Virus record (IMG/VR): IMGVR_UViG_3300030103_004079
DNA length: 64,000 bases
Strand: one strand, 5' to 3'
Source of the DNA: an uncultured virus (IMG/VR IMGVR_UViG_3300030103_004079)
Taxonomy: Duplodnaviria; Heunggongvirae; Uroviricota; Caudoviricetes
Shown: positions 10,439-62,526 of the stretch, piece after piece
Position numbering within the stretch: position 1 is the stretch's first letter
Layout of the letters: each line of letters opens with the position of its first letter
The notes under the pieces: model-generated
Told to the model about the DNA's origin: nothing
Databases searched by the model: none
The model's input: only the letters and a program-made list of their open reading frames with translations
Translations under genes and position numbers: made by a program

Positions 10439-10611
10439 TGGAAATGATAACAGAAAAAGAAATGATGAAATGTATAGATGATATAGGAGAGCGATTGAAT
10501 TTAACTAGAGGAGAAGGACAAATGCCTTTTTTAGATTTTATAACATGGGTAAAAGGCAGTATTGTAGATTGGTATGATAATCATAAAGATTTTGAGAGGG
10601 ATGAAGAATGA
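10438..10611 (+). CDS. Small hypothetical protein (57 aa) between groES and groEL
   Basis: Translationally coupled at both ends. Confidence 0.55.
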   Translation: MEMITEKEMMKCIDDIGERLNLTRGEGQMPFLDFITWVKGSIVDWYDNHKDFERDEE

Positions 10612-13431: not shown

Positions 13432-13642
13432 ATGGATTTACTTAGCGAATGCTATGTGGGCATACTCGGACAAACATGAAGGTGAAATATCACGCCTTCT
13501 AAAAGAAGTGGTAATTAAAGTTAATAAAAATATGGAGATGATTATAGATGATAGATTGGAAAATGATGAGCCGGTTGTTAGAATCCACGAAGGGAAAGAC
13601 ACCAACACAACAAGTAAAATTAATAGCAACAGAACTAGATAA
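13418..13642 (+). CDS. Small hypothetical protein
   Basis: MKKSEWIYLANAMW...; 3' part overlaps the ligase start. Confidence 0.5.
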   Translation: MKKSEWIYLANAMWAYSDKHEGEISRLLKEVVIKVNKNMEMIIDDRLENDEPVVRIHEGKDTNTTSKINSNRTR

Positions 13643-24883: not shown

Positions 24884-25765
24884 ATGAAGGTAGTTTACGG
24901 ACATACAGATTCAATCTATGTGCAAATAGATTCTGTTGAAAAAGCAGAAGAAGCAATTAAAGAGATTGAGTCTAGTGTAAGAAAGCATTTTCCTAATGTC
25001 ATGGGATTGAAACAACACCCTGTTGTATTAGAGTTTGAGAAATACTATTCAGCATTAGGTGTTGGTACAACTAAGAATAGAAATGCAGGTATGATTACAT
25101 GGAAAGACGGTGAGTGGTTAGACGAGCCGGAATTTGTAATGACAGGCTTTACTGCTAAGAGAGTTAGTGAAACCAAACTTGCTAAGGGAGTTCAAACAGA
25201 TGTATTGACTATGTGGGTAAACGAAAAACCTATGACAGAAATCAACAATTATCTACATGATAAATACAATGCTGTGATAAACGGGAATATTCCTATTGAT
25301 AATATTATCAAAAGAAGTAGGCTTAGAGAAGATAGATTTACTGTAAAGTGTAGAGGTTGCGGTAAGAAGCACGATTTACACGGTTGTCTTTCTATAAGAT
25401 GGTGTTTAAAATGTGGAGAAGATACTGCTAAGTTTACTACATTAGAAGGTAGAAGACCCTCGATAGGTTCGGGTATTGCAGGAGTTGTTTATGCTAAACA
25501 GAATGGCATTAACTTCGATGATTCTTACCTGTATCTAAAAGTAAGGTCTAATGAAACATACACTAACCCACTTACTAAGGAAGTAAGAACTGTAGAGTAT
25601 GTCTCAGGTTCACGCTATGTTGATTTTGATAAGTATAAACCCGACTATCAACACTATGCAGACCAAGTAATAAAGAAGGCAGAACCAATTTATAAGGCTA
25701 TGAATTGGGATTTGTCCAACATTAAAACGGGTAAAATACAAACTAAATTGGAGGAATGGTTTTGA
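24884..25765 (+). CDS. polB: Family B DNA polymerase, C-terminal part (motif C, thumb)
   Basis: YGHTDSIYV, LEFEK, KNRNAG, Zn-finger insert, PIP box QTKLEEWF. Confidence 0.92.
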   Translation: MKVVYGHTDSIYVQIDSVEKAEEAIKEIESSVRKHFPNVMGLKQHPVVLEFEKYYSALGVGTTKNRNAGMITWKDGEWLDEPEFVMTGFTAKRVSETKLAKGVQTDVLTMWVNEKPMTEINNYLHDKYNAVINGNIPIDNIIKRSRLREDRFTVKCRGCGKKHDLHGCLSIRWCLKCGEDTAKFTTLEGRRPSIGSGIAGVVYAKQNGINFDDSYLYLKVRSNETYTNPLTKEVRTVEYVSGSRYVDFDKYKPDYQHYADQVIKKAEPIYKAMNWDLSNIKTGKIQTKLEEWF

Positions 25766-34790: not shown

Positions 34791-35141
34791 CTATTCTACC
34801 TCCAAAGTTATGAAAAATTCTACTGTATCGCTTGAAGAAAATGGGCCAATTCCATCAAAGTTTTCTCTAAATAACATGTTAGAGTTAGTATCGAAGACTC
34901 CAACTTCTCTAAGAACTTGTCCTGTCATGGCCGCATTTGCTCCACTAACTGTTAATTTTATTTGGACAACATTAGCATCGGATTGTGTAGCATTAGAACT
35001 AGCAGTTGCCACAAGAACAACATCTAAATCATTCTGTGAAGCAAATGTAGAGTTTCCCCCCAATCCAACTTTACCGCTACCTGCATCTACTAGGCTTTTA
35101 AGTTCAGCCGCTAATAAATTTTTCAATTTGTCAGTTATCAA
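34791..35141 (-). CDS. Small tail/baseplate protein
   Basis: LREVGVFD motif typical of fibre-attachment proteins. Confidence 0.55.
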   Translation of the reverse strand: MITDKLKNLLAAELKSLVDAGSGKVGLGGNSTFASQNDLDVVLVATASSNATQSDANVVQIKLTVSGANAAMTGQVLREVGVFDTNSNMLFRENFDGIGPFSSSDTVEFFITLEVE

Positions 35142-38100
35142 AATTCTTCCTCCAATAATGTAGTGAAAGTGGTCACTCCTATATTCAATGCATTGGTGTT
35201 TGTATTTAGCGTTTCCGAGTCAGTTGAGTTAGTTCCCAATGTAAATGCCCCTACAGGGGTTGATTTTTTGACCACTTTAAATTCAATAGGTTTTACTTTA
35301 ACTAAATCTAAGAAGTTGAAGGCAACATCACTATCGTCAATATCATCCTCTCTAACTTTATTATTGACTCCTCTATTCTCTATTGCTAATTCTGTAAACC
35401 TGTCCTCTAAACCTTTAGTGTAACTTCCCAATTCTAAATCTAAAGTTCCTGTAAGGTTATGTTTTATTTCTAATACTATGAACCGACTTCTAGCAATATT
35501 CTCTTCCGGTATTTCAACAGTTACAACATCGCCAACTCTCAAATGTGATATTCCCTTGTGGCCGACGCTAATACTTAATCCAAAGGAATTATTATTGTGT
35601 AATTTTAACAATTCTCTTGCTCTTTTATTTACATCACTTTGCGTAACTAATTCATTTTCAAAGACCTGTAAAGTTTTTCTTCCTTTGAGCATTATGCTTC
35701 TAATATCTCTAACAACTGACTTTTTATTTTTGCCATTAACTATTATTTCATTAAATAAATCGAACTCGCTTTTTTCTTTGCTATAAGTAAATATTCGTGT
35801 ATCGGTGTTTTTAGTTGTAAAAAATATACTTGTTTTAAATATAGAACTATCATTTTCATCAATAGTAAATACACCATTATCCTCAATGAGTTTTTTATTC
35901 TTTTTACTCATCAAGAATTTAATTGCTGAAAATAAATCTACTCCTCTAAAATTAGGAGCAACATAATACGGGTATGCACTTTCTTCTAAATTAAAATCTA
36001 AATCATTTATTTCCATAAGTTCGTTGATGAGTTTATCCGAGTCTTGGCAAACAGAAACAACAGAACCTATTAATGCTCTTTCTCCTATATCCCCTGCTTG
36101 GCCATCTACCAAAATATCAATAGTTTCGGATAGTGAAACTACTCCTAACATTTCTTCTTGTTTTTCTATTGTAATGTCAAATCTAATATTATCTCCGCTA
36201 TCTTCAAAAGTAACACTAGTTAATTTACTATTACTACCATCACTTATATTCATCTCAACTGTTCCGCTAGCCATAATGTTATCTCTAAGATTTACAGGAT
36301 TCTCTACAACTAAATTCCCGTCTGCGCTTTGTCCATCGGGGTCTACAACTACATACATTGACAATACTGCTTCATTATTGCCTTCTTGCGTTCTATCACT
36401 GAATTCTTCTCCCCATAAATAATTAGGTATTTTTGCGGGGTATGTTGCATCTTCACTTGGCATTTTTGTATATTTAGATGAAAGTTCATTTATTCTAATT
36501 TTGTTTGGACTAAAACTATGGAAGCAAGTGTGGTTTGGTTGCATAATTCTAAAATTCTTGAATCTTTGATTATTAGAATTATTTGTTACAGCGTCGGGGA
36601 AAGTGCCGCTTAGAGTTAATATGTGATTTCTTTCCTGCCTAGTTGTATCAATTTCATGCGAGATAACATATAACATATATTTTGGACTTGTATTATTTAT
36701 TGAATATCTCATCATGTTTTGTCCCGACCCTATTCCATGAGAACCCCCTATCCCCCCTCCTGCTGTAGCATAATCTTCTACAATTTCGGCTTGTGGGTTA
36801 TAGGCTTCAACTTCTTCACTTACTAAATAACAACCAGTTAAGTCCATATAACTTAACCAGTGTAGATTATTAGGGAAAAGAAGGTTAGGTGCGCTTGCCC
36901 TACTTGTTTCTCCTCTCAATACTGATTTATCATGAATTGATATAACATGGACTTCTGTTCCATTAGTTGCTTCCTCTTTGGTTACATAATGCTGACTAAC
37001 CCTAACATTGATATCTGTTCCTGCTGAAGTAGCATTCGATGTCATGAATAATTTGTTAGGGTTGGAAACCATATCTACTTCATATACTCTAGTAAACTTA
37101 GGTATTTTTCCTTCGGGGCTGTGCAAGTAAGAGTAGTTTAGAGTGGTTGACCCGAACTGACCTAATGAAGAAGACTCTACCCTATCCAAATCATCTACAC
37201 ACCTTGCTGAACCTAGAGTAAATGTGCAAGGAGCAATATAACCTGTATCTATTTTTAACAGTGGTTTTAATCCTGCAAATACTCCATCTGCATCATTATT
37301 ATAAGTTACAAAATCAGCATCAGCATTCGTTACACCTGCCGTTATATCGGTAGAATTAGTCTTAACCTTTCTACTACGAAAACCCGCATGTGCCGGCACA
37401 TAACTTGCATTAATGGTTTTGCTTTGTATTCCGAATCTTACTTCTTTTTTATTTGCGGAAGTTGCATCAAAATCAATCTGTCTACAACTCACCAATCTTG
37501 GTGCTGTCATACCTATGGAAACCTTTGCACCAGTTCCACCTGCTATTTTGTATCTATCTAAAAACACGGGTAAGTGATTCATATATGCTTTTGATTCGTG
37601 GTTTGTAATATTAGCAGTAGTGCTACCGCCAAAACTATGAGCATTAACAGCATCAAACCCTACACTTCCTAAACCATCTTCTGGTGAAAAAGTTAATTCT
37701 GTTAAAGGTGCAAAAATTTCGCTTCTTCTTTTGCTATAATAATTAGAGTAGTTGCGAGTGACCATTTCAGCGATAGTGTGATTCCCTGCCAGTTGGCTAA
37801 ATATAGAGTCACCTGCAAAAGTAATAGGGAGTATTAGAGTAGAATCTTCTCCTACCCCTTGCACTGAAGTTTGTGCTGTGGCAGGGTTGCTACCTGTATT
37901 TTCGGGGTGTCTATCTAATGCAAACTTAGTTCCTAATCCACCATAACCCGATTCTTTATCTGTTCTAACAGTATCAACATATCCATTGATTGCGGAGGCC
38001 AATCCTCTCATTGTCGCCATTTGTAATGGATTAATCAAACCAACTGTTGAGAAATCATTATCGCCATTATATCCTTTTATGTTTGCCGCCCCTACGGTGT

Positions 38101-41100
38101 TTGATGCGTCTGCTAATTGGTTTCTAGCCACATCAAAATGAAAGAGTCTCATAAACTGACCGTTGGGCGAACTTCCATCTCTATGATTATATCTAGGCAC
38201 ATAAAAATCAGCCGCAGAATTAGCATCTAAATCTGTTTTATGTGCATTGGCTTTTAGATTTATTACTCCGGTGCTAATAGAATCAACAACACCTATGTAT
38301 CTTCCATTTTTATCACATACTATATCTCCTGCAACTAAACTACTTACAGTTGTTGCCGAGCCAGTATGAGGGTCTACTGTATTTATTACTTTACCACTTA
38401 TAGAACTAGCAGAAGCCCCTGTATTAATTATTGATAGTTGAGGGTAGCGGTTTATTATACCAATATTTTTGTCTTGCTTAGGTATGTTTTCGGGGTCAAA
38501 TTGATTATAGAAAATATCAAATGTAACTTCTGTTAATCTCATTAAACTAAATCTTCTTAATTCGCCTATTTTTTTATTGCTTATCACTGACCTAATATTA
38601 AATGTATTATAGGAATCGTCTAAGAATTCTAAACTGTTAGTCTTGCCCAACACAGCCTCTTTTGTTTCCGAGAAATCATTTTTTCTTGGTGAATTTATAG
38701 TGAGCATTGAATATTCACTTAAACTTCTATCTAATTTTTTATTTAAAAGACTATCCTTTCTAGTGGAAGAATAAGGTAATAAATCACTGTTACTAAACAA
38801 AAACATTCTAGCAATCTTAGGGTCTATTTGTTCTATTTGGTCTTTAAATTGATGAAGAGATATTAACTTATTGCCTGTTCCTAACATAGTATCATTGCCA
38901 AATGTTTTCACAAACGGAAATGGGTTATACAAAACTCTAGGAGAACCTCCCAATTCTACTTGGTCATGACCTATAAAGTGTGAATTTGAAAATTTTTCAA
39001 GTGTTTTAGTTTCATAAAATTTATCACCAACACAAGGTATATATCCTCTTGATTCTATTATTTTCTTATTATCGAAAGCATGGAATTCCGAACTAGCAGT
39101 AGAGTTAGCAGTAGCGTTTACAGCATTTCCATCTTTATCTCGCATTATAAATTCACCATCTTGGGATGTAGAAGTGTTGTGCTTCCCCACGATATTTCCT
39201 ACAAATGTATTTTCGGGTATTGCAGGAGTCGAATCAAGATGTGTGATGCTTTGCCCTAGTCTAAAAACATCAAAACTAAAACTATTTGCGCCTCCGCTAA
39301 TATAAATTTCAAATAGAAATTTTACATATGGGCTACCGGAAAATGTTTGCATCCTACCGTGATTTATAAAATTTAAACCACAAATATCAGTGCCAATTAT
39401 ATTGTTTTTAAGAAAACCGTCAGTATAATACCCTGCATTATATCTATACCCACTACCGTAAAAACCTATTTTACTAGGCTTGTCAACATAAAAATGAAAA
39501 TCTTTATCTCTAAAGAATAAATGTTTTGTTTTGTTATAGTTTCCTTGTTCTATATTGTTTAGTCTATAATTAGATGCTCCGAAACTAGATTGATAAGAGC
39601 CTAGAAAATTATTTCTTATGACACTTCCTAAGACAGTTCTTGCAGTATTACCTGCATTACCACCACTAGTATTTTGTCTTCTGTGAAAAACTTGCTCACC
39701 ATTCATTCTATAATTTAATACACTTGTAATATTGAAAGCATTAGCATTATTTACTTTAGGATGAATCAAAGATATGTTTTTAGCACCATGCAAATGACCC
39801 CCATTTAAGAAATTTAATTCATGTGTAAGTTTAGAACTCTCTCTAGTAATATCATCATTATTATGTCCATGTAATTTATCAACCACTGTTCCGCTAAGTA
39901 GAGTAAAAGTTAAACTAGATTCTAAAGAAATTGTGGCCGCATTACTAATTGTAATAGATTTTACTCCTACAGAAGTTACAGTAGTAGAAGCCGGTATTCC
40001 TGTTCCTGTTACCCCCATACCAACAAATATGTCTTCTATTGTTGGTATATTCGTTACAGTAAGATTAGAATTTAACTTACAGGATAATTCGGTTTTACCA
40101 ACTTCTCTATCTAAATATATTCTAGCCAATGTAGAAGGTAAAGAGAATTCTACATCTGCTGTTGTCCCTGCTCCTGCTGTGCCAGTTATTGTCAATGTGT
40201 TGCCATCTATTGAAGTTATAGTATTTCCACTAAAGGCACCATTTCCACTTAATACCATTCCTTCGGAAAGCCCATGACTTGCTGATGCTGTAACTTCAAC
40301 AGTATTTCCTCCTGTAGACCAAGTAGAAGAATAAATCAATTCTGCACTTTTCTCTACCGAAACAACATTTGCTAAAAATTTTCCATTTATGTAAATTGGT
40401 TTACCATGTAAATTTCTTTGACCTCTAAGATGATTAACTGCTGAAAGGGCTTCATCACTATTTACATCTATGAAACTTCTTGCATAGGAAAAATCATGTA
40501 GAGTCTTACCTAAATCTTTTTTAGAAAACGAAGTATCTTGGGTACTAGCATAATTAATATCTACTCTTCCTAAAGTCAATGGATTGTAAGGTGCTATTTT
40601 AACAACAGTTCCTTTATTCTGTCCTGCTGATTTTTTAGATACTATTTCAAAATCTATTAGAGTATTTATTGTATCAAAGGATTCTGCATTGTCTCCTTCA
40701 TCTTCTAATATGGCTTGGAAGTGAGCGTCACTCAACATATTAGAAACATCACTTATTTCATAACCTATTGCATTTTCATTGTCACTACCACTAGTCCCTA
40801 CTAGTCTATCTCCTTCTGCTCCGGTAGGAGTTATTTTAACACCGGAGTTAAAGAATAGTCCCTTATTAGAAGCCCCACTCAAACTAGTAGTGGAATCTAT
40901 AAACGGATTAGTTGCTAATGCTTTATTTAGGACATAGTTTTTATTCGATTCTTTGAATAAAGTGGCACTATCGGAACCACCGGAAGTAAGCGTTCCAGAT
41001 GGTAAAACTCTAGTTTCTGCTCTTGAGAAGTCTTCTAATATTATAACCGGCCTCTCTAATTTTTCAATAGAAGTAATGTTAGAAGTAACATCTTTACTTA

Positions 41101-43630
41101 GTGTTATTTGATTTGAACTAACATTTATTCCAATTACAAAAGTGTCATCGGGAATAACTGAAGAACCTGTTGTTACAGGAACATGCACTATCCTATCACC
41201 TATTTCATAATTAGCCACAGTAACATTAGTGACAGTAGCACCCGAAAAAACAAAAGAAGCCTGTTCCGAACTTGCGACTTTAGAAGCAACTTTACCAACA
41301 TACGACATTGTTCCCGTATGGTGTTTTATGTGTAGTTTATCCCCTACTAGTGCCGCATCATGCACAGCCTTAACAGCAATAACTTCGTTATTACTAAAAT
41401 TACACGAAGCCGAGCCACCTAAACTAGTTAATTTATTATAAGGACTTTGTGTAGAATAAATAATATCTTGAGAAAACAATGTATTCTTTGTTAATATTGG
41501 AGAAATTAATTTCCTAATATTACTTCGACCTGCTAATTTTATTTGAGTTAATCCATTTTCTTTGAAGTTGTCTATTCTTTCTACTTCTCCATTTAACTTT
41601 TCTATTACAATAGCATATTGACCCGACATATAATCTAGCATAGTTCCTTGAGAATGGTAGGCCGCTTCATTACTTGTGCTTCCATCCGAGTCAAAATATG
41701 CTTTATCCGAGAAAGATAATGTTAGTAGTTTTTTATTTACATCTAATGCAGTTACAGTAGCATATAAGAAGCCAAACTCCCTAGATAAAAACTTAACAAG
41801 AACAGTATTTTGTCTGTTCACTACTAGGGGAAAATCTGTAAATAAAGTTTTATCTTTTTTATTATATGCTCTCCTTTCAAGAACACTATCGTTTGCTAAG
41901 GTGTAAGAACCCGTAGTAAATATTGATTCTGTTTCTAATCTATTTTCGCTTCTAAAGGTAATGTTTTGAGTTTTACCACTAATAGATGCTATGCTTTGAA
42001 CAATAACTATTCTTGTGCCAACTCTAACTTCATCGCCAACATTTAGATAACTACCTAAATCGTGGTCTGTTGTTGTTGCGTAAGTGTTACCACTAGGGTT
42101 TGCAGTTATTTTAGCACCTATTGTTTTAAATTCGTTAAAGTCGCCACTAAACAACTGATGTCTAATTCTAAGTGGTTCTCCACTATCTATTTTTTCAGTT
42201 AATATTCTAAATGGGTCTGCTAAAGTGACTTCGGCCAAAGTTCCCTTTGCTCCCATTGATTCAAGCAATTGGTGGTCTAAAACATTGTATGCTAGGTTTG
42301 CTTTATCTTTAGAAAAACTATACGACAAATATCTATATGGGCCGGTATAATCTTGGTCGCCTGTTCCTGTTATAGAATCATTAGCGTCTCTTCTAGCATT
42401 AGTAAAACAAGCATCTCTTGTAAAGGGAGTGTAAGTTAATATTGTTTCTCCTTCATTACTAGTATGCGTAGCGGGACTATCTTGATTTTTTAGATTATCA
42501 ACAAGTCTTGTTTTCAAAGAATGCCTACCGTAGTCTATAATATCTGTTCCAAAATCAGGAGTGGTTGTAAAGAAACTAGTAGTGGCTAAATCATCTGTTG
42601 CTCCACTAATAAAATCTAATTCACTATAAATTAAATTATATTTTTTATTGTGGTCTAATTCGTTTTTCTTATCTAAGTTTTCATTGAAGAAAAAGAACAA
42701 CGGTCTTGATACTGTCGCTTTATGTCCTATACTGCTTTTTATTCCTAAACCCACCGCTACTTCTGTAATGTTATTAGATATAGGTGTAGAGAATAATTTA
42801 AACTTAACATTTTTTGCTATTTCATCTCCCAACTTTGGCCTAAACTCAAATGAATCTCCGGCAACATCATCCTCAAATCTTTCCGAAACTTTAGCAAAAT
42901 GATGCTTGCTTGAGTCATCGGAATGAATCATAACAAAAACATGATGTGTTGATAATATATCGGGGAGAATAGCCCCTGTTTGTGTTAAGTCATCAAAACA
43001 TTTTATTCTATTACCTTCTGTTACTGCTAAATTCCTATGCTCTAATCCCAAAACATATGTCGCATTGCTAGCGTTAGCACTTGCTTTTTCAGTTAAGGCA
43101 AATTCAGTTGAAGAAATTATCCTTTCTATTCTTGCTTGAGTTCCCGTAAATCCTGTTCCATTTACACTTTGTCCAACATACAAAGAGTTAGTATTGCCGC
43201 TTGATAGTGTTACCACATTGCTATCTTGTGTAACATTACAGTTAGCCAATGTGCTTCTGCCAATTGAAGTTAAAGTAACAGAACCCGAACCGTCTTCTGT
43301 AATAACTACACCAAAAGAGTCTACTGATGTAGAGGTAGCACTAACGCAAAGTTGTGGATTAGTTGGAGTATCATGTGCTGTTTTAGTAAATGTAACAGTT
43401 CCGGTTGCTCCCGAATCAGTAGCCGCTTTGCTCATGGTTATATTTGCATTAGTAGATATTGCTGTCACTATGGCACTAGTAGATAAATTAGTTCCGCTAA
43501 CTTTCATGCCGATAAGAATGTTGCTTGTATCACTTATTGGTAAAGTCACACTACCGGATGTAGCGGTTGTTGTGGATTTAGTTACTGTTGTAGTCGGCCT
43601 ACTTAATGCTACTACTGTAGAAGTTGTCAT
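35138..43630 (-). CDS. Giant tail/baseplate (adhesin-hub) protein, 2830 aa
   Basis: Repeated GMxVxGxxIP-type beta modules; C-terminal hub-like LRVGDVVTV..FIVLEI segment; position after tape measure. Confidence 0.7.
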   Translation of the reverse strand: MTTSTVVALSRPTTTVTKSTTTATSGSVTLPISDTSNILIGMKVSGTNLSTSAIVTAISTNANITMSKAATDSGATGTVTFTKTAHDTPTNPQLCVSATSTSVDSFGVVITEDGSGSVTLTSIGRSTLANCNVTQDSNVVTLSSGNTNSLYVGQSVNGTGFTGTQARIERIISSTEFALTEKASANASNATYVLGLEHRNLAVTEGNRIKCFDDLTQTGAILPDILSTHHVFVMIHSDDSSKHHFAKVSERFEDDVAGDSFEFRPKLGDEIAKNVKFKLFSTPISNNITEVAVGLGIKSSIGHKATVSRPLFFFFNENLDKKNELDHNKKYNLIYSELDFISGATDDLATTSFFTTTPDFGTDIIDYGRHSLKTRLVDNLKNQDSPATHTSNEGETILTYTPFTRDACFTNARRDANDSITGTGDQDYTGPYRYLSYSFSKDKANLAYNVLDHQLLESMGAKGTLAEVTLADPFRILTEKIDSGEPLRIRHQLFSGDFNEFKTIGAKITANPSGNTYATTTDHDLGSYLNVGDEVRVGTRIVIVQSIASISGKTQNITFRSENRLETESIFTTGSYTLANDSVLERRAYNKKDKTLFTDFPLVVNRQNTVLVKFLSREFGFLYATVTALDVNKKLLTLSFSDKAYFDSDGSTSNEAAYHSQGTMLDYMSGQYAIVIEKLNGEVERIDNFKENGLTQIKLAGRSNIRKLISPILTKNTLFSQDIIYSTQSPYNKLTSLGGSASCNFSNNEVIAVKAVHDAALVGDKLHIKHHTGTMSYVGKVASKVASSEQASFVFSGATVTNVTVANYEIGDRIVHVPVTTGSSVIPDDTFVIGINVSSNQITLSKDVTSNITSIEKLERPVIILEDFSRAETRVLPSGTLTSGGSDSATLFKESNKNYVLNKALATNPFIDSTTSLSGASNKGLFFNSGVKITPTGAEGDRLVGTSGSDNENAIGYEISDVSNMLSDAHFQAILEDEGDNAESFDTINTLIDFEIVSKKSAGQNKGTVVKIAPYNPLTLGRVDINYASTQDTSFSKKDLGKTLHDFSYARSFIDVNSDEALSAVNHLRGQRNLHGKPIYINGKFLANVVSVEKSAELIYSSTWSTGGNTVEVTASASHGLSEGMVLSGNGAFSGNTITSIDGNTLTITGTAGAGTTADVEFSLPSTLARIYLDREVGKTELSCKLNSNLTVTNIPTIEDIFVGMGVTGTGIPASTTVTSVGVKSITISNAATISLESSLTFTLLSGTVVDKLHGHNNDDITRESSKLTHELNFLNGGHLHGAKNISLIHPKVNNANAFNITSVLNYRMNGEQVFHRRQNTSGGNAGNTARTVLGSVIRNNFLGSYQSSFGASNYRLNNIEQGNYNKTKHLFFRDKDFHFYVDKPSKIGFYGSGYRYNAGYYTDGFLKNNIIGTDICGLNFINHGRMQTFSGSPYVKFLFEIYISGGANSFSFDVFRLGQSITHLDSTPAIPENTFVGNIVGKHNTSTSQDGEFIMRDKDGNAVNATANSTASSEFHAFDNKKIIESRGYIPCVGDKFYETKTLEKFSNSHFIGHDQVELGGSPRVLYNPFPFVKTFGNDTMLGTGNKLISLHQFKDQIEQIDPKIARMFLFSNSDLLPYSSTRKDSLLNKKLDRSLSEYSMLTINSPRKNDFSETKEAVLGKTNSLEFLDDSYNTFNIRSVISNKKIGELRRFSLMRLTEVTFDIFYNQFDPENIPKQDKNIGIINRYPQLSIINTGASASSISGKVINTVDPHTGSATTVSSLVAGDIVCDKNGRYIGVVDSISTGVINLKANAHKTDLDANSAADFYVPRYNHRDGSSPNGQFMRLFHFDVARNQLADASNTVGAANIKGYNGDNDFSTVGLINPLQMATMRGLASAINGYVDTVRTDKESGYGGLGTKFALDRHPENTGSNPATAQTSVQGVGEDSTLILPITFAGDSIFSQLAGNHTIAEMVTRNYSNYYSKRRSEIFAPLTELTFSPEDGLGSVGFDAVNAHSFGGSTTANITNHESKAYMNHLPVFLDRYKIAGGTGAKVSIGMTAPRLVSCRQIDFDATSANKKEVRFGIQSKTINASYVPAHAGFRSRKVKTNSTDITAGVTNADADFVTYNNDADGVFAGLKPLLKIDTGYIAPCTFTLGSARCVDDLDRVESSSLGQFGSTTLNYSYLHSPEGKIPKFTRVYEVDMVSNPNKLFMTSNATSAGTDINVRVSQHYVTKEEATNGTEVHVISIHDKSVLRGETSRASAPNLLFPNNLHWLSYMDLTGCYLVSEEVEAYNPQAEIVEDYATAGGGIGGSHGIGSGQNMMRYSINNTSPKYMLYVISHEIDTTRQERNHILTLSGTFPDAVTNNSNNQRFKNFRIMQPNHTCFHSFSPNKIRINELSSKYTKMPSEDATYPAKIPNYLWGEEFSDRTQEGNNEAVLSMYVVVDPDGQSADGNLVVENPVNLRDNIMASGTVEMNISDGSNSKLTSVTFEDSGDNIRFDITIEKQEEMLGVVSLSETIDILVDGQAGDIGERALIGSVVSVCQDSDKLINELMEINDLDFNLEESAYPYYVAPNFRGVDLFSAIKFLMSKKNKKLIEDNGVFTIDENDSSIFKTSIFFTTKNTDTRIFTYSKEKSEFDLFNEIIVNGKNKKSVVRDIRSIMLKGRKTLQVFENELVTQSDVNKRARELLKLHNNNSFGLSISVGHKGISHLRVGDVVTVEIPEENIARSRFIVLEIKHNLTGTLDLELGSYTKGLEDRFTELAIENRGVNNKVREDDIDDSDVAFNFLDLVKVKPIEFKVVKKSTPVGAFTLGTNSTDSETLNTNTNALNIGVTTFTTLLEEEF

Positions 43631-53357: not shown

Positions 53358-54026
53358 TCACATTAACCATTTAGCCCAAGCCGCACCTTTTTGTATAGCA
53401 CTACCTAAACCTAATCCGCTTTGTGGAGGTTCGTAACTCATTTGTCCTTGAGCATCTATCCAATATGGTCTTCCATAGTTATCTGTGCCTGTTGGTGGTA
53501 TAGGATAGCCACTACCATTATTCATAGCACCTTGCATCTGTTGATATTGTTGAGTTTGTCCTGTTAGTCCTGCTATTGCCATACCTGCTGTCGGTTGTGC
53601 CATTTGTTGCATGCCACCACCACCGCTAAATCCTTGAGATTCTAGGTATTGCTGTTTTGCTAACTTTCTTTGATTAACAACTTCTGTATTGATTGCCGCA
53701 TCTAATATCTTTTGAATGTCTAATTCAATATTTTCTTGAGTTATCTTTTCAAATTCTCTCATAGCATCATTGTGTATTCTTAACATTCCTGTTGTAGAAT
53801 CTGTTGTAAATTGTAACTTAGCCAACATCTTACTAACTACTCTTTCCACAACATCTTCCATAAGTTTCTCTATTTGTGTTAAAAACATTTGACCGTGATA
53901 TTGAAAGAACTCCTCAACATGATTGTCTTGTAAAGAAAGTAAATTATTTACATTCTTGAATTGTTGGTCGCTTTGTGCTTGTACTGATGCCAAGACTGTT
54001 CCGTTACTTGTTCCTAAAATTCCCAT
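53358..54026 (-). CDS. Helical protein with Q/G/M-rich low-complexity region and amphipathic C-terminus
   Basis: ...GLGLGSAIQKGAAWAKWLM. Confidence 0.7.
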   Translation of the reverse strand: MGILGTSNGTVLASVQAQSDQQFKNVNNLLSLQDNHVEEFFQYHGQMFLTQIEKLMEDVVERVVSKMLAKLQFTTDSTTGMLRIHNDAMREFEKITQENIELDIQKILDAAINTEVVNQRKLAKQQYLESQGFSGGGGMQQMAQPTAGMAIAGLTGQTQQYQQMQGAMNNGSGYPIPPTGTDNYGRPYWIDAQGQMSYEPPQSGLGLGSAIQKGAAWAKWLM

Positions 54027-54027
54027 A

Positions 54028-54660
54028 TCATTCACCCTGTTCTCCTTTAATTAGATAATTAACTCTTTCTGTATTTAGTTGTATTTCCGCCATCAATCTA
54101 ACTATTTCTGCCATTTGTGTTTCTGCATCGGTAGCCGGTGTTGGTGGCGTTATAGTCCATCCCATGCTAGTCAACCTCATAACATCTTCTTTCGTTAAGT
54201 TGTTTAATTGTTGTCTTTTCAACATAGAAGGCATTTTGGCTTTAGGAATAAACGCTTTAAAATCTAATCCGTGTTCATCTGCCAATATTTGTTGTTGTAG
54301 CATTTCCATTTGTTTATGGATAGCCGCATGTCTAGGGCAGTAAGTTCCTCTAAGCGGTCTTCCTTTCTCTACTTTATCTAGCGGTATTGGTGGCCTTAAG
54401 TAATCTCCTGCTTCCCAAATTTGATGAGTTCCACAAACTACACATCTATCTTTAAAGTTAAACTTGTGACCATATCTTATGAAGAGAACCTTTTTCTTTT
54501 CCGGTAACAATACTTTTCTTATTTCTTTCATTTGCTTCTTTGGTTTTAGCGCATCAAACTTATAATCTTCAATTGGCCCAACTGCTCTATATTGTTGCAG
54601 TTTAGGTAAAAAAGCGTTCTTTGCTTGTTGCGTGTTTATCAAATTCGGTTGCTGATACAT
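54028..54660 (-). CDS. Zn-binding hypothetical protein
   Basis: CVVCG...YCPRH. Confidence 0.7.
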   Translation of the reverse strand: MYQQPNLINTQQAKNAFLPKLQQYRAVGPIEDYKFDALKPKKQMKEIRKVLLPEKKKVLFIRYGHKFNFKDRCVVCGTHQIWEAGDYLRPPIPLDKVEKGRPLRGTYCPRHAAIHKQMEMLQQQILADEHGLDFKAFIPKAKMPSMLKRQQLNNLTKEDVMRLTSMGWTITPPTPATDAETQMAEIVRLMAEIQLNTERVNYLIKGEQGE

Positions 54661-54670
54661 CTTTCATTCC

Positions 54671-55333
54671 TCAATAATCCTTTATCATAGTGGTTATTCC
54701 TTTATACACCATCTCAGGGTCGGACTTAGCCGATACTATATATTTGAAACAAGGTATACCCTTGTCATTTAACTGCCTCATTCCATACTTAAAAGGTTCA
54801 AATATTTCATGTTTGTCTATAGGATTGTCACTTTTATACTTCTCTCCCCACATATCATATTTATTTCCCCATATACCAACTGCCATAGGATAATCCGCCT
54901 CTTTTTTCTTTCTACCCGAAGGCCATCTATCTGCTACAATAGTATCTACTAAAAATTTCCATGCTAGTTGATGGTCTAAATTAGAAGGAGAATCTAAATG
55001 CCTGTGGTCTATCATAAAAATAATATATCTTACTTTACGCTTTTGCATATCTTTGACCCATTCTTTCCAATAGATTGCTTCCCCTCCCAAGTCAGCACTC
55101 TTAATTGTGTGAGAACTACCATCAATCTTAACATTCTTTCTAGTGGCTCTATGTAAACCAACGGTTCTATCTTTTATTGTGGGAACTTCTCCCCTTGTTC
55201 TAAGTTGGTGGCTTAGGGTTGTTTTACCAACCATTGTAGAACCATAAACTCCAAAATTAATTGCATGAACTTTTTTGTAAAAGCCTATTATTGCTTCACC
55301 CACAAGAATAGCAAAGCCAGTCATTATGGACAT
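54671..55333 (-). CDS. Small Ras-superfamily (Arf-like) GTPase
   Basis: G1 GSTMVGKTT, G2 RTVG, G3 DLGG, G4 NKYD, G5 SAK; hydrophobic N-terminal helix. Confidence 0.88.
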   Translation of the reverse strand: MSIMTGFAILVGEAIIGFYKKVHAINFGVYGSTMVGKTTLSHQLRTRGEVPTIKDRTVGLHRATRKNVKIDGSSHTIKSADLGGEAIYWKEWVKDMQKRKVRYIIFMIDHRHLDSPSNLDHQLAWKFLVDTIVADRWPSGRKKKEADYPMAVGIWGNKYDMWGEKYKSDNPIDKHEIFEPFKYGMRQLNDKGIPCFKYIVSAKSDPEMVYKGITTMIKDY

Positions 55334-55552
55334 TTAATGCCCCCAAATATCCTTAGCCCTCTCTATAATCCAACCCATTATATTAATGTCAAAGACTCCC
55401 ATAATATTACCTATCAAAAATGCTGATAATCCAACACAACTTCCCCAAAAATACATCTTCATTTTTATGAAGAACATATCTGCCGAATGCGCTCGACTTT
55501 GATTATATACATAGTCGGACTCACTAAAGCCCATTATGTCGCCAAAGACCAA
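55334..55552 (-). CDS. Small membrane protein
   Basis: Hydrophobic YFWGSCVGLSAFLIGNIMGVF segment. Confidence 0.7.
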   Translation of the reverse strand: MVFGDIMGFSESDYVYNQSRAHSADMFFIKMKMYFWGSCVGLSAFLIGNIMGVFDINIMGWIIERAKDIWGH

Positions 55553-55563
55553 TCAACCACAAC

Positions 55564-55974
55564 CTACTGTTGTATAGTTGCTAAAAATTCATTTCCTATT
55601 GTGTTGTCATCGTAATCTTCAGTGGTAGCCATAACTCCGTTTCGCCAGTTTTCACGCCTTACTGTGCCGAACTGCTTCATGCTATCTTGTAGTTTAGATT
55701 TGATTTGTTCTTCTCTTTGTAGTCTTTGGAAATGATTTTCTATCTGTCTGTCTAGTAATCGTATCTCAATCTTATCGTTTAGTGATAGGTCAAACAATGC
55801 TTTCATAACCATTATTCCACCCACCGTAATAAGCCCAAACAGAACAGAATGTGCTAATGCTCCGTAAGGGAAATTTAATCCATAAGCAGAATAAAAATAT
55901 ACATTCGCTCCGCTAACTGTTCCGACAAATAAAATTGTCATAACTAATCTTGTGTCTTGACTTAGTGCCGCCAT
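55564..55974 (-). CDS. Two-TM membrane protein with C-terminal coiled coil
   Basis: Two hydrophobic segments followed by heptads. Confidence 0.75.
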   Translation of the reverse strand: MAALSQDTRLVMTILFVGTVSGANVYFYSAYGLNFPYGALAHSVLFGLITVGGIMVMKALFDLSLNDKIEIRLLDRQIENHFQRLQREEQIKSKLQDSMKQFGTVRRENWRNGVMATTEDYDDNTIGNEFLATIQQ

Positions 55975-57342: not shown

Positions 57343-58680
57343 TCATTGTATGTTTGTTATTTTTCCTTGTCCTCTAAAAAATGAACATCCTACTTCACCA
57401 ATTGTTCTGTATAATGCCCTGTTACCTAGAGTTCCAACACCGAATGGATTTCCGTTAGCAATACCATCTTCAAAGTATTGAGTTGGCTTCATAACGGATA
57501 GCCATAGGTGGTCTGTATCAAGGAATAATAAATCGCTTAGTTTTGTTGAAGCACTACCTGTTTGGCACATATCCTTTACAGGAATAAGTGGCAAATCATA
57601 ATAAGTAGCAACTCTAAATCCAACTTCTTGACCCTTTGTTCCTCTAACACCGTTTACGGTTGGTACGATTTCTTTTCTGTCCATGAATCTTTCTTGACTT
57701 TGTAACAAGTCAGCGATTGCTTGAATAGTATCATATCCAGTTAGAATAACCTTTGGAGAACCACCGGCTAGTCTTAGGTTTCTAATCATATCGTTAAGTC
57801 TTGTTAGAGTTAGTGAACGAACATCACCACTAGCATATCCACTACCAAAGTCTACTTCTGCATCAAGGAAAGAAGCGGCAGTAAATCTCTCTCTACCGTA
57901 AATTTTTCCTAGTGCGTTAGAAGCGGAAGCGGTATCAGTTGCGATAACTCCGCCATCAATTGCTAGTAGTTCTGCTCTTGAAGTAATAACCTTGTTTAGA
58001 GAAGTATAGTTGTTACCGATATTTGGCATAGCGGATGATTCACCATAATGCTCTAGTGGCATAACCAACATTTTGTTTTGAACTTCTGCATGGTGCTTAC
58101 CCATATCTTCACGCATTTGCGCTCTAATATCGCCAATACCATCATCAATTTGTGCCATTTCCATAGCAAGTTCACTGAAATCAAATTGGTGTGCAACTAC
58201 TTTAGGACTCATGTTAAGTTGTGCATAAGTTGGTGCAATTGGGCCAAGTCCATCAGCCGCAGTTGAAAGTCCTGCGTTTTCAGGAACACCACCGATAAGG
58301 TCTGCTCTTGGGCTATCCGAACCTAATTCTCCTAGTGTTGCATTACCTGTTGCATCAACAGTAAACAAGTTACCGCTTCCACCGGCAGGTCGTGATTGTA
58401 GAACTCTCCATCCGCTAGAACTGTAAGGTCTTTTTGAAATCATTGAAAGAGCATTAACTTCTCTATTCAACATAGACCATACTTTCTGTCCGTAAACAAT
58501 GTTGTAAAGTGCTGATACATCACTGACAGCACTACCGGAGAATGCCGGAGAACCATCATGTCCTGTGTGTATTCCACCAATAGCACCGGCTTGCTTCAAA
58601 AGAGCGTTACCGGCAGGTAGATTGTTTATTCCATATGTGCTTGCTTCTAAATCTGCGATTGTATTAATATAACCTGTCAT
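57343..58680 (-). CDS. Major capsid protein (HK97 fold)
   Basis: Follows protease/scaffold; PKVVAHQFDFSELA spine-helix pattern; C-terminal QGKITNI. Confidence 0.85.
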   Translation of the reverse strand: MTGYINTIADLEASTYGINNLPAGNALLKQAGAIGGIHTGHDGSPAFSGSAVSDVSALYNIVYGQKVWSMLNREVNALSMISKRPYSSSGWRVLQSRPAGGSGNLFTVDATGNATLGELGSDSPRADLIGGVPENAGLSTAADGLGPIAPTYAQLNMSPKVVAHQFDFSELAMEMAQIDDGIGDIRAQMREDMGKHHAEVQNKMLVMPLEHYGESSAMPNIGNNYTSLNKVITSRAELLAIDGGVIATDTASASNALGKIYGRERFTAASFLDAEVDFGSGYASGDVRSLTLTRLNDMIRNLRLAGGSPKVILTGYDTIQAIADLLQSQERFMDRKEIVPTVNGVRGTKGQEVGFRVATYYDLPLIPVKDMCQTGSASTKLSDLLFLDTDHLWLSVMKPTQYFEDGIANGNPFGVGTLGNRALYRTIGEVGCSFFRGQGKITNIQ

Positions 58681-58681
58681 C

Positions 58682-59374
58682 TTAAATTCCTCCTACCATT
58701 TTGTGAATGTCCGACCAATCCATGTTAGCCATCTCATCCATACTTGGGAGTTTAATTGCGGATTCTTCTTGTGCCTTTAGGATAGTTTCCTTTTCTGCTG
58801 TCAAAGATTTCCTTAGTTGTGTAAATTCATCCTTAAGAGAAGCAATCTCGCTTTGTGCATCATAGTTTGCTTTTGCGATTGTGTTTTCTCTTTGTGAAAC
58901 TTCTCTTGAGAATCTTGCTTCAAAAGACTTCTTTAGGTTGTCATAAGCAAGTGTTTCAAGTTGTTCTTGTCGGAAAGCCTCATATGCTTTCTCAATGTTT
59001 CCAACTGACAAATCTAGTGTGTCAAATTCACCGTTACCAAAAGCCTTTACGACTGGCATATCGGAGGAAGTTGGTTTACCATTGTTAATTACAATACGGT
59101 CAGCAGGTTCTCCAATTTGGTTTCCTGCACCATCAAGAGTTCTTAAGTAAGCCTTTGCTTCTTCATCTTGATATTCGCCCATTTCTGTTTCATCAGACTC
59201 TTCCATGTCTTCATCAGCCATTTCGTAGTCTCCTCTTTCCATGTCATCATCAGCCATTTCTGTTTCTTTCATGCCTTTCTCATCGTCTAGCAACTCTTCT
59301 TCTTTACGAAGCGTATTTACTTCTTCTAGCAAAGTATCTAACTCCGCTAATGCTTTTTCTAGTTTTTCACTCAT
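58682..59374 (-). CDS. Nested in-frame scaffolding protein (internal start)
   Basis: AGGAGA RBS then ATG (MSEKLEK) at the protease/coil boundary. Confidence 0.6.
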   Translation of the reverse strand: MSEKLEKALAELDTLLEEVNTLRKEEELLDDEKGMKETEMADDDMERGDYEMADEDMEESDETEMGEYQDEEAKAYLRTLDGAGNQIGEPADRIVINNGKPTSSDMPVVKAFGNGEFDTLDLSVGNIEKAYEAFRQEQLETLAYDNLKKSFEARFSREVSQRENTIAKANYDAQSEIASLKDEFTQLRKSLTAEKETILKAQEESAIKLPSMDEMANMDWSDIHKMVGGI

Positions 59375-59908
59375 GTTTATTTCTCCTTTATCTTGTTTCA
59401 AAATATCGAATCTCGCTTCGGGGTTAATTCCTTTTTCGCATATAGTAATTTCATGCAACTCTAACTTGCTGATTTCGTTATACTCACCCAAGTTTTCACT
59501 ACTTTTTTTTACTTTTTGGAGGGCTTGTCCTCCTATGCTAAAAGACCTCAATGACCCTTTGCGAATGTTTCTGCCAACTTCTTTGGCTTTTTCTATATCG
59601 TCTCGTAGTTTAATTACTACAAAGAAACCAACATCATCTACTTCAGATTTCCAAAGCCTTCCTGTGCTGTCTCTATAAGAATCTACAACTTCTCCAACTT
59701 GAACATTGGAATGATTTGTCATAACATTTCTAAATTTAGAGTCTCCCATAAATTTAGTAACTGCTTCATTAAGTGCCTTTAGTGTGATTAAGTCGTTTTG
59801 CTTATCAACTATTTCTATGCTAGCATATCCGCCAATCATTAAATCATCAGTGCTAGCCTTGAGGATGGAGAACCCATCATTTCTCGTTGCTAATACTGCC
59901 GATGACAT
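58682..59908 (-). CDS. Prohead protease fused to scaffold
   Basis: GGYAS..VDKQND, MTNH, SFSIGG, LHEITIC..GINPEA; acidic coiled-coil C-terminal half; start reset to ATG 59908. Confidence 0.88.
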   Translation of the reverse strand: MSSAVLATRNDGFSILKASTDDLMIGGYASIEIVDKQNDLITLKALNEAVTKFMGDSKFRNVMTNHSNVQVGEVVDSYRDSTGRLWKSEVDDVGFFVVIKLRDDIEKAKEVGRNIRKGSLRSFSIGGQALQKVKKSSENLGEYNEISKLELHEITICEKGINPEARFDILKQDKGEINMSEKLEKALAELDTLLEEVNTLRKEEELLDDEKGMKETEMADDDMERGDYEMADEDMEESDETEMGEYQDEEAKAYLRTLDGAGNQIGEPADRIVINNGKPTSSDMPVVKAFGNGEFDTLDLSVGNIEKAYEAFRQEQLETLAYDNLKKSFEARFSREVSQRENTIAKANYDAQSEIASLKDEFTQLRKSLTAEKETILKAQEESAIKLPSMDEMANMDWSDIHKMVGGI

Positions 59909-59937
59909 TTCGCTCAAAAGGAAAAAATTTTCTTTTG

Positions 59938-59945
59938 ATATATAA
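59938..59945 (-). promoter_or_regulatory. TATA box candidate for the capsid operon (near-leaderless transcript)
   Basis: TTATATAT about 30 nt upstream of ATG 59908, which has no SD. Confidence 0.5.
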
Positions 59946-59967
59946 TACACACGGTTATTTTAAACGA

Positions 59968-62526
59968 TTAATCCTCTTTTGGAGGTAATTTGAGAACGCT
60001 ATATTTATCTTCGTAAATATTCCATAGCCCTTTATCTGCATCAGCATCAGCAGGTTTCTGTTCATAGCCTGTCCATGCTAACCACATTTCTTTTCCTTTA
60101 ACCTCAAGCATTCTAACATGAAGTTTGGTTTCAAATTTATTTCCATCTAAGAAATATTCATGGTAGCCCTCCTTTTGAACACCTAATTTGACATCGCCAC
60201 TATCAATTAATTTACGCTTAGAAATATTCTTAGCAACAATAGCAGGGAACTTACCTGCCTTTCCAAACAATTCAAACACATCGTCTTGTGAATCTAATCT
60301 AACCATCCAGTTGATGTTTTCATCACCTAATTTCATTACTATGTTTAAGTTATCATCATCTCTAAGATATATCTTGAATTCACCACTTCTGTATTTTTCG
60401 GGAGTTTTATATTCTTTTTTGATAGTGTCCATCAATATTTTGTCATTGTCTGCAAATAACTTCTTTGTTTTAGCATCAAAAGATATTCCATCTCTATTTT
60501 CAAACCAATCTTTAACTCGACTCTCTTTACTATCTAAAATAGTTTGATAGTCATTTTTGTGGTTCACAGTTAAAAAATTATGAATTTTTTTAGCGGTTTT
60601 TGCACCCTTTTCTTTTAAGAAATTAAATATAGCAACAGTAAGTTTAGATTGTTTTGTTTTCATTATTTCTTCTGCTTGTTCTTTCCACAGGTCTAAATCC
60701 ATTAGTGCATTCTTAGCCATTAAGTTATCTTCTTCAAACCCATAGATAGTAAAGCCATCCATATCTCCTTTAATTATAATATTGGCTTCGCCGTGAATAT
60801 GGTCAGAAACTACAATACCTTTCTCTACTTCTTCTACATTATATTTCAAAGACTTATCCGTATCATTAATTAGCATTTGTAGAGTAACTAACTTATCCGG
60901 TGTTTTACTTTCAGCGATTTCATTTATCTTTGCTGAATAAACAACTGGCTTACCCTTAACTTCTTTTACTTTATCAATAGAAACTCTAACAACTTCTCCG
61001 ACATCTGCTGAAACTTTAGTATTAGTAGCACTACCTACATTAAGATAGTTTACGCCTTCTATTTTTTCACCGCCTTCTTCAACTGGCCCTGCTCCTAACT
61101 TGTAAGAAAAGTTAGAACCACTCTTTTTCTTATCAAGCACAATTAAATCTAATTCAACAAAGGGCTTCCATCTAATCCACTTAGGATTTTTCTTAGTTCC
61201 CAAGAAGTATGTAGAAGTCGCATCTTTAATCATAGCCCCTTCTGCTGTCGGCATTTCCATAATTTTCTTAGCATATTCTTCAACATCTTTTAGATTGTCT
61301 GCGACTCTAGTGTCTTTTTTAGATGGGAATGTTAAGTCTTCACTAGAATGTATAGAGTAGTTGTTAAACATTATCTGCATTCTGTTTTGTAGTGTATCTT
61401 CCATAAGGTTTTCTTCATTGTGTCTCATAATGTCAAATACATGAATTCTTGGTTTGCCCTCTCTTTTTCCTTCTAGGTATTCTACTACCTCTTTTCTTTT
61501 TAACGAATCTTCACCATCAAATAAAACTAAAGAAGCATCTAAGATGCAATCGCCAAAATGTTTTTTCTTTAGTTCTTCAATTGCCTCTTTACACTTTGAT
61601 GTAATATCTTTACCTGTATAATCATAGGCTTTTATATTTTTATCTATTTTATGCAATTGAATTCTAAATCCATCATACTTTTCTTGAACATAAAACTCAC
61701 CACTAAATCCTTTTAGTTCATTCATGTCTTCTATTGTAAATATTCTATACATTGGTTTGTTAGGGACTATGAAATCACTTTGGGCTTTTTCTTCATCGGA
61801 TTTCTTTTCTTTTAGAATAATCTTACTATCTTCTTTTTTATCATCCTTTTCGTCTTTAGCCTTAGCCTCGTCTAAATCTGTATCTATATCTTCTAGTTCA
61901 GCCCATTCTTCTTTAGTATTCTTAGATAAGAATATTAATTCTAACATATTCATAGCGGCCTTTACTTTAGACTCCACCTTTTTAGAATCTTTATCGTCGC
62001 CATAATGTTCTATGATGTAAAGTGCCACATCATCAACTTCTAAGTCTAGCCCAGTTAAACCCTCAGTAATGTCATCGGGCTTCATATCTTTAATTGAATA
62101 TGCTTCTTTAGGTAGGGCTTTATCATCTTCTCTAATAGCATAGTGAACAAACTTAATCATAAGTTCGGGTGATTCCAATAATGCTTCTAATACATTACCT
62201 TTGAATTTTTTAGCAAAAGGGTCACTGACTTCTTCCGAAGAATATCTTAGTGCTTTAATTCCTTGATATAATTTTTCGGCATTGTTTGTTATTGGGTCGG
62301 AAACATCATTTGATTCTAATAAGTCCTCATCAATATAATCCTTGAGTTCATTTGAAAGAGCATCTGTCATTTCATATGCTTCTTTAATTTTATTAACCGC
62401 ATTTCTCCATTTAGAACCGTATTCCTTTGGGTCGGTTCTTGCTGAAAGATAAGCAACTCTTGTTCTTTCAAAGAGTCTTAGAATATCTGTGGATATTGAC
62501 TTATCCTTCTCAATAAGAAGTGGCAT
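59968..62526 (-). CDS. Second ATP-dependent ligase-like protein in the head module
   Basis: QEKYDGFRIQLH, ILDAS, FDIM, EGAMIK, WIRWKP; long N-terminal extension; C-terminal LigD-phosphoesterase-like fold. Confidence 0.85.
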   Translation of the reverse strand: MPLLIEKDKSISTDILRLFERTRVAYLSARTDPKEYGSKWRNAVNKIKEAYEMTDALSNELKDYIDEDLLESNDVSDPITNNAEKLYQGIKALRYSSEEVSDPFAKKFKGNVLEALLESPELMIKFVHYAIREDDKALPKEAYSIKDMKPDDITEGLTGLDLEVDDVALYIIEHYGDDKDSKKVESKVKAAMNMLELIFLSKNTKEEWAELEDIDTDLDEAKAKDEKDDKKEDSKIILKEKKSDEEKAQSDFIVPNKPMYRIFTIEDMNELKGFSGEFYVQEKYDGFRIQLHKIDKNIKAYDYTGKDITSKCKEAIEELKKKHFGDCILDASLVLFDGEDSLKRKEVVEYLEGKREGKPRIHVFDIMRHNEENLMEDTLQNRMQIMFNNYSIHSSEDLTFPSKKDTRVADNLKDVEEYAKKIMEMPTAEGAMIKDATSTYFLGTKKNPKWIRWKPFVELDLIVLDKKKSGSNFSYKLGAGPVEEGGEKIEGVNYLNVGSATNTKVSADVGEVVRVSIDKVKEVKGKPVVYSAKINEIAESKTPDKLVTLQMLINDTDKSLKYNVEEVEKGIVVSDHIHGEANIIIKGDMDGFTIYGFEEDNLMAKNALMDLDLWKEQAEEIMKTKQSKLTVAIFNFLKEKGAKTAKKIHNFLTVNHKNDYQTILDSKESRVKDWFENRDGISFDAKTKKLFADNDKILMDTIKKEYKTPEKYRSGEFKIYLRDDDNLNIVMKLGDENINWMVRLDSQDDVFELFGKAGKFPAIVAKNISKRKLIDSGDVKLGVQKEGYHEYFLDGNKFETKLHVRMLEVKGKEMWLAWTGYEQKPADADADKGLWNIYEDKYSVLKLPPKED

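Follow-up and report, generated by a model that had tools for sequence, protein, structure and literature searches.

In haloarchaea, the small GTPase ArvA drives vesicle formation with a Zn-ribbon partner, and knockout of the GTPase of this system abolishes vesicles, as described in passages of one report (PMC10927574). The egress players of archaeal tailed viruses are called 'still completely uncharacterized' in a section of a 2024 review, which also lists small size, one or more transmembrane segments and a charged C-terminus as generic features of holins (PMC10791045). The DNA analyzed here, a stretch of 64,000 nucleotides (nt) from an uncultured virus of the Caudoviricetes (IMG/VR record IMGVR_UViG_3300030103_004079; hereafter the window), contains a block of five co-oriented open reading frames (ORFs), A-B-C-D-E, at 53358-55974 on the minus strand, in which C is a predicted small GTPase with an Arf-like fold, A and B are predicted membrane proteins, D carries a Cys/His motif and E is rich in Gln and Gly. 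The block is a real, portable, GTPase-centred module, hitherto undescribed and, judged from its sequence, probably associated with the membrane.

The product of the GTPase ORF shares 76% identity with gp088 of Poseidoniales virus YSH_150918; this identity and the contigs of its relatives indicate that the window derives from a magrovirus, one of the tailed viruses that infect Marine Group II archaea. The window covers part of the genome, as related contigs reach about 90-96 kilobases (kb). All five ORFs that a first-pass annotation of the window had listed as tightly packed were recovered on the minus strand at the same positions (Table 1), with spacing that ranges from an 8-nt overlap to an 11-nt gap. 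The genes are evidently real, because relatives of C, D and E are numerous (359, 340 and 978 were recovered, respectively) and the gene order is fixed in hundreds of contigs.

Conservation and relocation of the block

The block occurs in four deeply diverged lineages, the GTPases of which are about 30-33% identical to one another; sequence comparison recognizes homologs of C, D and E in all four. In each, C follows one or two small hydrophobic proteins and precedes D and E, in one fixed order. Lineage 1, to which the window belongs, comprises 234 viral-contig loci with C at least 82% identical to that of the window; of the 80 loci that were kept, 58 have the full A-B-C-D-E order and the other 22 are cut by locus ends, three of these having an insert of roughly 0.5 kb before D. 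A precedes B-C in 76/80 lineage-1 loci, and the missing cases are at locus ends. Lineage 2 (C about 33% identical to that of the window) comprises 267 loci, and its block is complete in 79 of the 80 that were kept, a count that is partly circular because the profiles were built from those same loci. The lineage-2 block consists of a membrane protein of ~180 amino acids (aa), a protein of ~80 aa, the GTPase of ~240 aa, a Cys protein of ~300-340 aa, a Gln/Gly-rich protein of ~210 aa and a two-segment membrane protein of ~80 aa. The A-to-E order is kept in the four loci of lineage 3 (P0137-like) and in the 11 metagenome loci of lineage 4 (P0133-like), the latter with an extra ORF of ~250 aa before the GTPase. 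The conservation of the genes together, on which the first-pass annotation had made its proposal of a membrane cassette depend, thus extends across four lineages. The locus scan used a 4-sequence alignment, a 12-sequence alignment being too diverse. P0147, P0133 and P0169 had no loci among the viral contigs, P0133 being recovered later in metagenome contigs; the 'phages' collection, from which records near the window may be missing, gave no tblastn match.

Profile-profile comparison of lineages 1 and 2 linked C with a probability of 99.9%, D with a probability of 96.4% (E-value 1.3e-9) and protein E with a probability of 49% (hhalign E-value 1.7e-4), all off-diagonal pairs having E-values of at least 0.005. 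A has a weak profile link to its lineage-2 counterpart (hhalign E-value 0.016), and between B and the lineage-2 protein B' profile-profile comparison detected no homology, the position being kept. The lineage-2 A profile matches lineages 3 and 4 at 2.7e-18 and 5.8e-19, and lineage 3 bridges the other lineages, being matched also by the lineage-1 profiles of D (5e-7) and E (4e-7). The additional ORF of lineage 4, placed between B and C, lacks hydrophobic segments, and a PDB search gave no relative of it (best E-value 0.007). In one locus (L135), ORFs of 143 and 79 aa lie between the GTPase and D, and in three others (L042, L056, L063) there is about 0.5 kb at that place; insertions at the junction of C and D are tolerated.

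The block relocates as a whole. In two lineage-2 genomes estimated by CheckV to be 98% and 100% complete (G002 and G003), a distance of about 20 kb separates it from the capsid gene. The order on the minus strand of G002 is the block, a helix-turn-helix protein, three unknown ORFs, the large terminase subunit (with an HNH ORF inside), the portal, a 1895-aa ligase-like protein, the protease, the capsid protein, four small ORFs, an 856-aa ORF and the phrog_17057 protein. The genes from the protease to the phrog_17057 protein are in the same order as in the window, with the block taken out to the head of the operon. The description of the block as lying inside the virion operon is therefore accurate for the window lineage and fails for lineage 2. 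The 648-aa ORF of the window and the 856-aa ORF of lineage 2 were considered as homologs and rejected (BLASTP E-value 0.017); they are positional analogs only. A search with the capsid protein of the window gave no match in two lineage-3 records, G004 (79% complete) and G005 (33% complete). The HNH ORF of G002 (439 aa; HNH endonuclease match phrog_5046, 2.1e-10) lies between the terminase nuclease domain and the portal, which suggests that the terminase gene is interrupted.

Sequence constraint was expressed as the median identity in the 50 more diverged lineage-1 loci. It is 84.5% for the GTPase, 78.5% for E, 75% for B, 72% for the prohead protease, 65.9% for the capsid protein, 57.8% for A and 57.7% for D. 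The GTPase is the most conserved late protein in lineage 1 and is more constrained than the capsid protein.

The GTPase and its partner proteins

The motifs of C in the window are GSTMVGKT (G1), DLGG (G3), NKYD (G4) and SAK (G5), so that the complete Arf-type small GTPase recognized in the first-pass annotation is confirmed in its motifs and has an Arf-like predicted fold. Among 119 C sequences from three lineages, the P-loop GxxxxGK[ST] and NKxD are present in all, and DxGG with Trp at +11 is present in 115; the latter combination, which we take to be a mark of the Arf/Sar/G-alpha group, aligns to DLGGQ...W of 8oun and DIGGQ...W of Arl3. G5 is SAK in lineage 1, MAT in lineage 2 and SAT in one of two lineage-3 sequences, a motif search having found no G5 in the second. 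The residue after DxGG is Glu in 56/56 sequences of lineage 1, Gln in 41/61 of lineage 2 and His in lineage 3. C has an insert of roughly 25 residues around 133-150.

Pfam gave no match of the window C to Arf (PF00025) at E <= 0.1, and its other matches (MMR_HSR1 at 17.5 bits, SRPRB, Ras and Roc) are all below cut-off. The closest cluster representative (P0121) scores 16.8 bits against Arf, for which the gathering cut-off is 22.3; C proteins of lineages 2 and 3 have no Arf match at E <= 0.01. The cut-off is passed by the distant relatives P0168 (57.2 bits), P0183 (36.5 bits) and P0169 (27.2 bits) only, which lie on short contigs. Among 1.84 billion cluster representatives searched, 64 clusters matched at E <= 0.001 and just 8 of them at E <= 1e-30; thus, the C family is small and isolated, and the result argues against close kinship of C with any large cellular family. 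The automatic Joint Genome Institute name 'GTPase SAR1 family protein' is carried by 5/120 homologs among the matches listed. A 16-member profile of C matched the solved chains 8oun_A (Asgard Arf-like) at 5e-9, Arl3 at 1.9e-8 and KRas at 3e-7, the identity of C to solved Arf-family chains being 15-22%. An AlphaFold2 model of C from 43 sequences has a small G-domain fold, with a predicted local distance difference test score (pLDDT) of 87 and a predicted template modelling score (pTM) of 0.84. Foldseek placed Rab33 first by E-value and Arf6 first by TM-score, and for that reason the margin of Arf over Rab and Ras is modest. By its motifs and predicted fold, C appears to be a bona fide small GTPase that is closest to the Arf family; in terms of sequence it is best placed as a very divergent viral branch next to that family, outside the Pfam definition of it.

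The N-terminal 18-mer of the window C is hydrophobic (mean Kyte-Doolittle hydropathy, KD, 1.82), and the helix is predicted at pLDDT 57-62 by AlphaFold2. In lineage 1 the 18-mer is transmembrane-like (KD 1.78, mean hydrophobicity 0.72, moment 0.19, one buried Glu); in lineage 2 it is moderately hydrophobic (KD 0.91); and in lineage 3 it is amphipathic (moment 0.44-0.56). The term amphipathic suits lineage 3 better than the window lineage, where the helix resembles a transmembrane anchor. The hydropathy of A in 19-residue Kyte-Doolittle windows is 1.53 at residue 10 and up to 1.98 at residues 38-45, and the last 77 residues of A contain 11 Lys or Arg and 14 Asp or Glu, 25 charges in all. Hydropathy, a property of sequence alone, agrees with the earlier view of A as a two-segment and B as a one-segment membrane protein, and a predicted association of A, B and, in the window lineage, C with the membrane is supported.

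Zinc binding by D, as proposed in the first-pass annotation, is plausible, because C73 and C108 are invariant across lineages and H111 is nearly so; all four motif residues (with C76) are present in the window, of which the two Cys named first are the only invariant ones, and the core of D is conserved. The model predicted for D, which is weak at a pLDDT of 63.6, resembles no solved fold, in particular none like that of a GTPase-activating protein (GAP) or a guanine nucleotide exchange factor (GEF). Neither D nor E has a Pfam match at E <= 0.1 or an ESM Atlas match reaching 0.9, and a search of NCBIfam and PADLOC with 16 cassette proteins of three lineages returned only small_GTP below cut-off and chance-level rows. 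E has the helical core and the Gln/Gly-richness attributed to it; the amphipathicity attributed to its C-terminus is weak, the Gly-rich tail having a hydrophobic moment of 0.33-0.35. A central ITQENI-like motif and the Gly-rich tail of E are kept in all three lineages inspected, and there is no named protein among the 978 relatives of E. The E' protein of one lineage-2 locus matches the type III translocon family SctB (NF038055) at an E-value of 5.8e-4 and 19.4 bits, the cut-off being 37; this sole family hint for E is probably compositional.

Possible roles of the block

The block is a self-contained late-gene module, centred on the GTPase, that probably acts at the host cytoplasmic membrane under a GTP switch. 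We infer, with a probability of roughly 35%, that the module may time or carry out the opening of the host membrane by which virions are released. How it might do so can be proposed only tentatively: C, as an Arf-like switch working with D and E, would control A and B and thereby set when the archaeal membrane opens. A and B would sit in the membrane; C in its GTP-bound state would use its N-terminal helix to engage the membrane, in the manner of Arf-family proteins, and would recruit or release the soluble partners D and E, of which E may also touch the membrane via its Gly-rich C-terminal tail. A would be holin-like, and the GTPase would act as the gate. In favor of this reading are the small-GTPase motifs and predicted fold of C, the joint conservation and the portability of the block, the constraint on C, the predicted membrane features, and the shared late orientation and close packing of the genes. 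RNA-library contigs from three studies, which span portions of A, C, D and E and of the capsid and protease genes, are a further point; one of them, of 599 nt, bridges the D/C junction.

Several observations weigh against a role in membrane breach. Neither Pfam nor PHROGs identified a lytic enzyme or a known holin family in the 62 scanned ORFs of the window, in agreement with the first-pass annotation, which had recognized no holin or endolysin there. The block lies among head and neck genes in the window, a position that fits virion or assembly proteins too. The catalytic Gln of Arf is replaced by Glu in the window lineage; hydrolysis may therefore be slow or work differently. The N-terminal helix appears transmembrane-like in lineage 1 only. 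The second Cys of D (C76) is not conserved across lineages, and as D has no recognizable fold, a GAP or GEF role for it is unsupported. The RNA-library contigs attest presence and are not proof of transcription, much of the stretch is uncovered, and they cannot rank the genes.

The alternative that fares best, although it is unlikely, is a membrane-anchored platform for assembly or packaging, which would tether procapsid assembly, DNA packaging or a zone of replication and assembly to the membrane, with the GTPase as checkpoint. It would account for the invariable co-orientation of the block with morphogenesis genes (head genes adjoin it in lineage 1, terminase and portal genes in lineage 2) and for a GTPase more conserved than the capsid protein, as expected of a hub with multiple partners. 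However, the head-to-neck gene order of lineage 2 is intact without the block, which therefore stands outside the collinear structural series, and no tailed virus is known to us to require a GTPase-bearing membrane platform.

Still less probable is manipulation of the host without lysis, by ArvA-like vesicle formation, by surface remodelling for superinfection exclusion or by altered membrane physiology. The succession of an N-terminal-helix GTPase and a Cys-motif protein parallels arvA-arvB-arvC as set out in parts of PMC10927574. On the other hand, OapC (ArvC, PF09845) matched 0/3 viral records and OapB (ArvB, PF09846) 0/4 at E <= 1, while the controls matched in Haloferax volcanii, and D and E lack Pfam matches as noted above. 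Recent capture from a host is unlikely, because there are only 64 related clusters and only the most distant of them pass the Pfam Arf cut-off.

Least probable of all is a reading of A, B, D and E as internal virion proteins or ejection (pilot) proteins that exit the capsid on infection and form a channel across the envelope of the host, C loading or regulating them in the course of assembly: the block does lie between capsid and neck genes in the window lineage, phage ejection proteins often have hydrophobic segments and low-complexity Gln/Gly regions, and the lineage-2 E' has its weak, sub-cut-off translocon match, but that match is probably compositional, the block is at the operon head in lineage 2, a GTP switch is of no obvious use inside a particle, and PHROGs revealed no homology to known ejection proteins.

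If timed breach of the host membrane by the GTPase-centred module is true, tailed viruses of archaea would have their first identified egress system, and prokaryotic viruses a counterpart of the membrane remodelling by Arf- and ArvA-type proteins. Surface oceans hold Marine Group II archaea and their viruses in great abundance, and the mechanism of release therefore bears on carbon turnover. The block offers a concrete target of five to six genes for the question of archaeal-virus lysis, and these can be expressed in model archaea. In their main texts, three papers on magroviruses (PMC5434244, PMC10160649, PMC11706807) do not use the word 'GTPase', and no description of the block was found in the portions consulted of the literature on GTPases of archaeal viruses, of Marine Group II viruses or of Caudoviricetes; supplementary tables, which lie outside that scope, may carry an automatic name. 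New here are the relocation of the block, the constraint on the GTPase, the lack of a known fold in D, the lack of OapB and OapC matches and the lineage-specific N-terminal helix.

Genome context and comparison with known systems

The plus strand from 1 to 31.6 kb of the window is a replication module that encodes a helicase, a ligase, a clamp loader, a family B polymerase, a primase, nucleases and a chaperonin; the morphogenesis module is on the minus strand and starts at about 32 kb. On the upstream side of the block are the protease and capsid genes together with four small ORFs; on the downstream side are the 648-aa ORF, the phrog_17057 protein and then a tail-tube-like protein. An ATG at residue 4 may be the true start of E.

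Table 1. Positions of the block, its neighbors and other features (window positions unless a locus is given)
Feature	Position	Strand	Description
A	55564-55974	-	136 aa; two hydrophobic segments (about 10-28, 38-62), charged helical C-terminal tail
B	55334-55552	-	72 aa; one hydrophobic stretch (33-63); abuts GTPase start
C	54671-55333	-	220-aa predicted small GTPase, Arf-like fold; hydrophobic N-terminal helix (residues 2-22)
D	54028-54660	-	210 aa; Cys/His motif C73, C76, C108, H111
E	53358-54035	-	225 aa; helical core (about 40-130), Gln/Gly/Met-rich region, Gly-rich C-terminal tail
Prohead protease	58682-59950		upstream side of block
Capsid protein	57343-58680		HK97-type (SU10_MCP, phrog_24667); upstream side of block
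Ligase-like ORF	59968-62526	-	852 aa; directly upstream of prohead protease
2830-aa ORF	35138-43630	-	tail region
Ordinary ligase	13548-15083	+	
DNA polymerase, first ORF	21854-23500	+	family B; DNA_pol_B positions 38-193
DNA polymerase, second ORF	24884-25765	+	family B; DNA_pol_B positions 222-365
Chaperonin-like protein	10608-12131	+	group II; Cpn60_TCP1, 2.7e-47
ThiF-family protein	8764-9324	+	early module
Lineage-2 E'	L143:7709-8356	+	sub-cut-off SctB match
HNH ORF of G002	L169:17519-18838	-	439 aa
Lineage-4 ~250-aa ORF	L171:7229-7999	+	between B and GTPase
Lineage-4 ~250-aa ORF	L180:7217-7999	+	between B and GTPase
Lineage-4 ~250-aa ORF	L176:6435-7181	+	between B and GTPase

Other features of the window include the 852-aa ORF, which has an ATP-dependent DNA ligase adenylation domain (PF01068, E-value 1.6e-22) and is homologous (BLASTP 3e-29) to part of the 1895-aa ORF at the same place in G002, so that a ligase-like domain is kept inside the head-gene block, separate from the ordinary ligase. 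The family B DNA polymerase is split: an interval of about 1.4 kb, which contains an ORF of 149 aa, separates its two ORFs. The 2830-aa ORF has no Pfam match and one C-terminal PHROG of unknown function. The chaperonin-like and ThiF-family proteins are encoded in the early module.

Among known systems, ArvA-ArvB-ArvC (OapA/B/C) is likewise an operon of a GTPase with a hydrophobic N-terminal helix and Arf-like affinities, a Cys-motif (Zn-ribbon) partner and a third partner, and acts on the archaeal membrane, according to passages of its description (PMC10927574). The viral block differs in that no sequence relation of the partners was detected, in that it adds predicted integral membrane proteins, and in that it is viral and late-expressed by position. 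A resembles holins in its small size, its pair of hydrophobic segments and the high charge of its C-terminal tail, a likeness of features and not homology. In lambdoid phages, the lysis genes lie just upstream of the terminase genes, as does the block in lineage 2. Unlike a lysis cassette, the block has no holin-family homology and no adjacent endolysin among the scanned ORFs of the window, and no lysis cassette that includes a GTPase is known to us. The signal recognition particle (SRP) receptor beta subunit also has a hydrophobic N-terminal anchor before an Arf-like G domain, and C has a weak Pfam match to SRPRB (E-value 0.011); this match scores 15.5 bits against a cut-off of 25, the context is viral, and there is no partner like the SRP receptor alpha subunit.

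The closest known relatives of C are in the Arf family (Arf1, Arf6, Arl1, Arl3, Arl6, Arl8 and the Asgard ArfR of PDB 8OUN/8OUM/8OUK), from which C differs by Glu in place of the catalytic Gln, by SAK as G5, by the insert of ~25 residues, by the lack of a Pfam Arf match at E <= 0.1 and, in the window lineage, by an N-terminal helix that is predicted to be transmembrane-like and not amphipathic. As a divergent viral branch near Arf, C would stand beside the Asgard ArfR and the euryarchaeal ArvA in informing the prokaryotic history of small GTPases that act on membranes.

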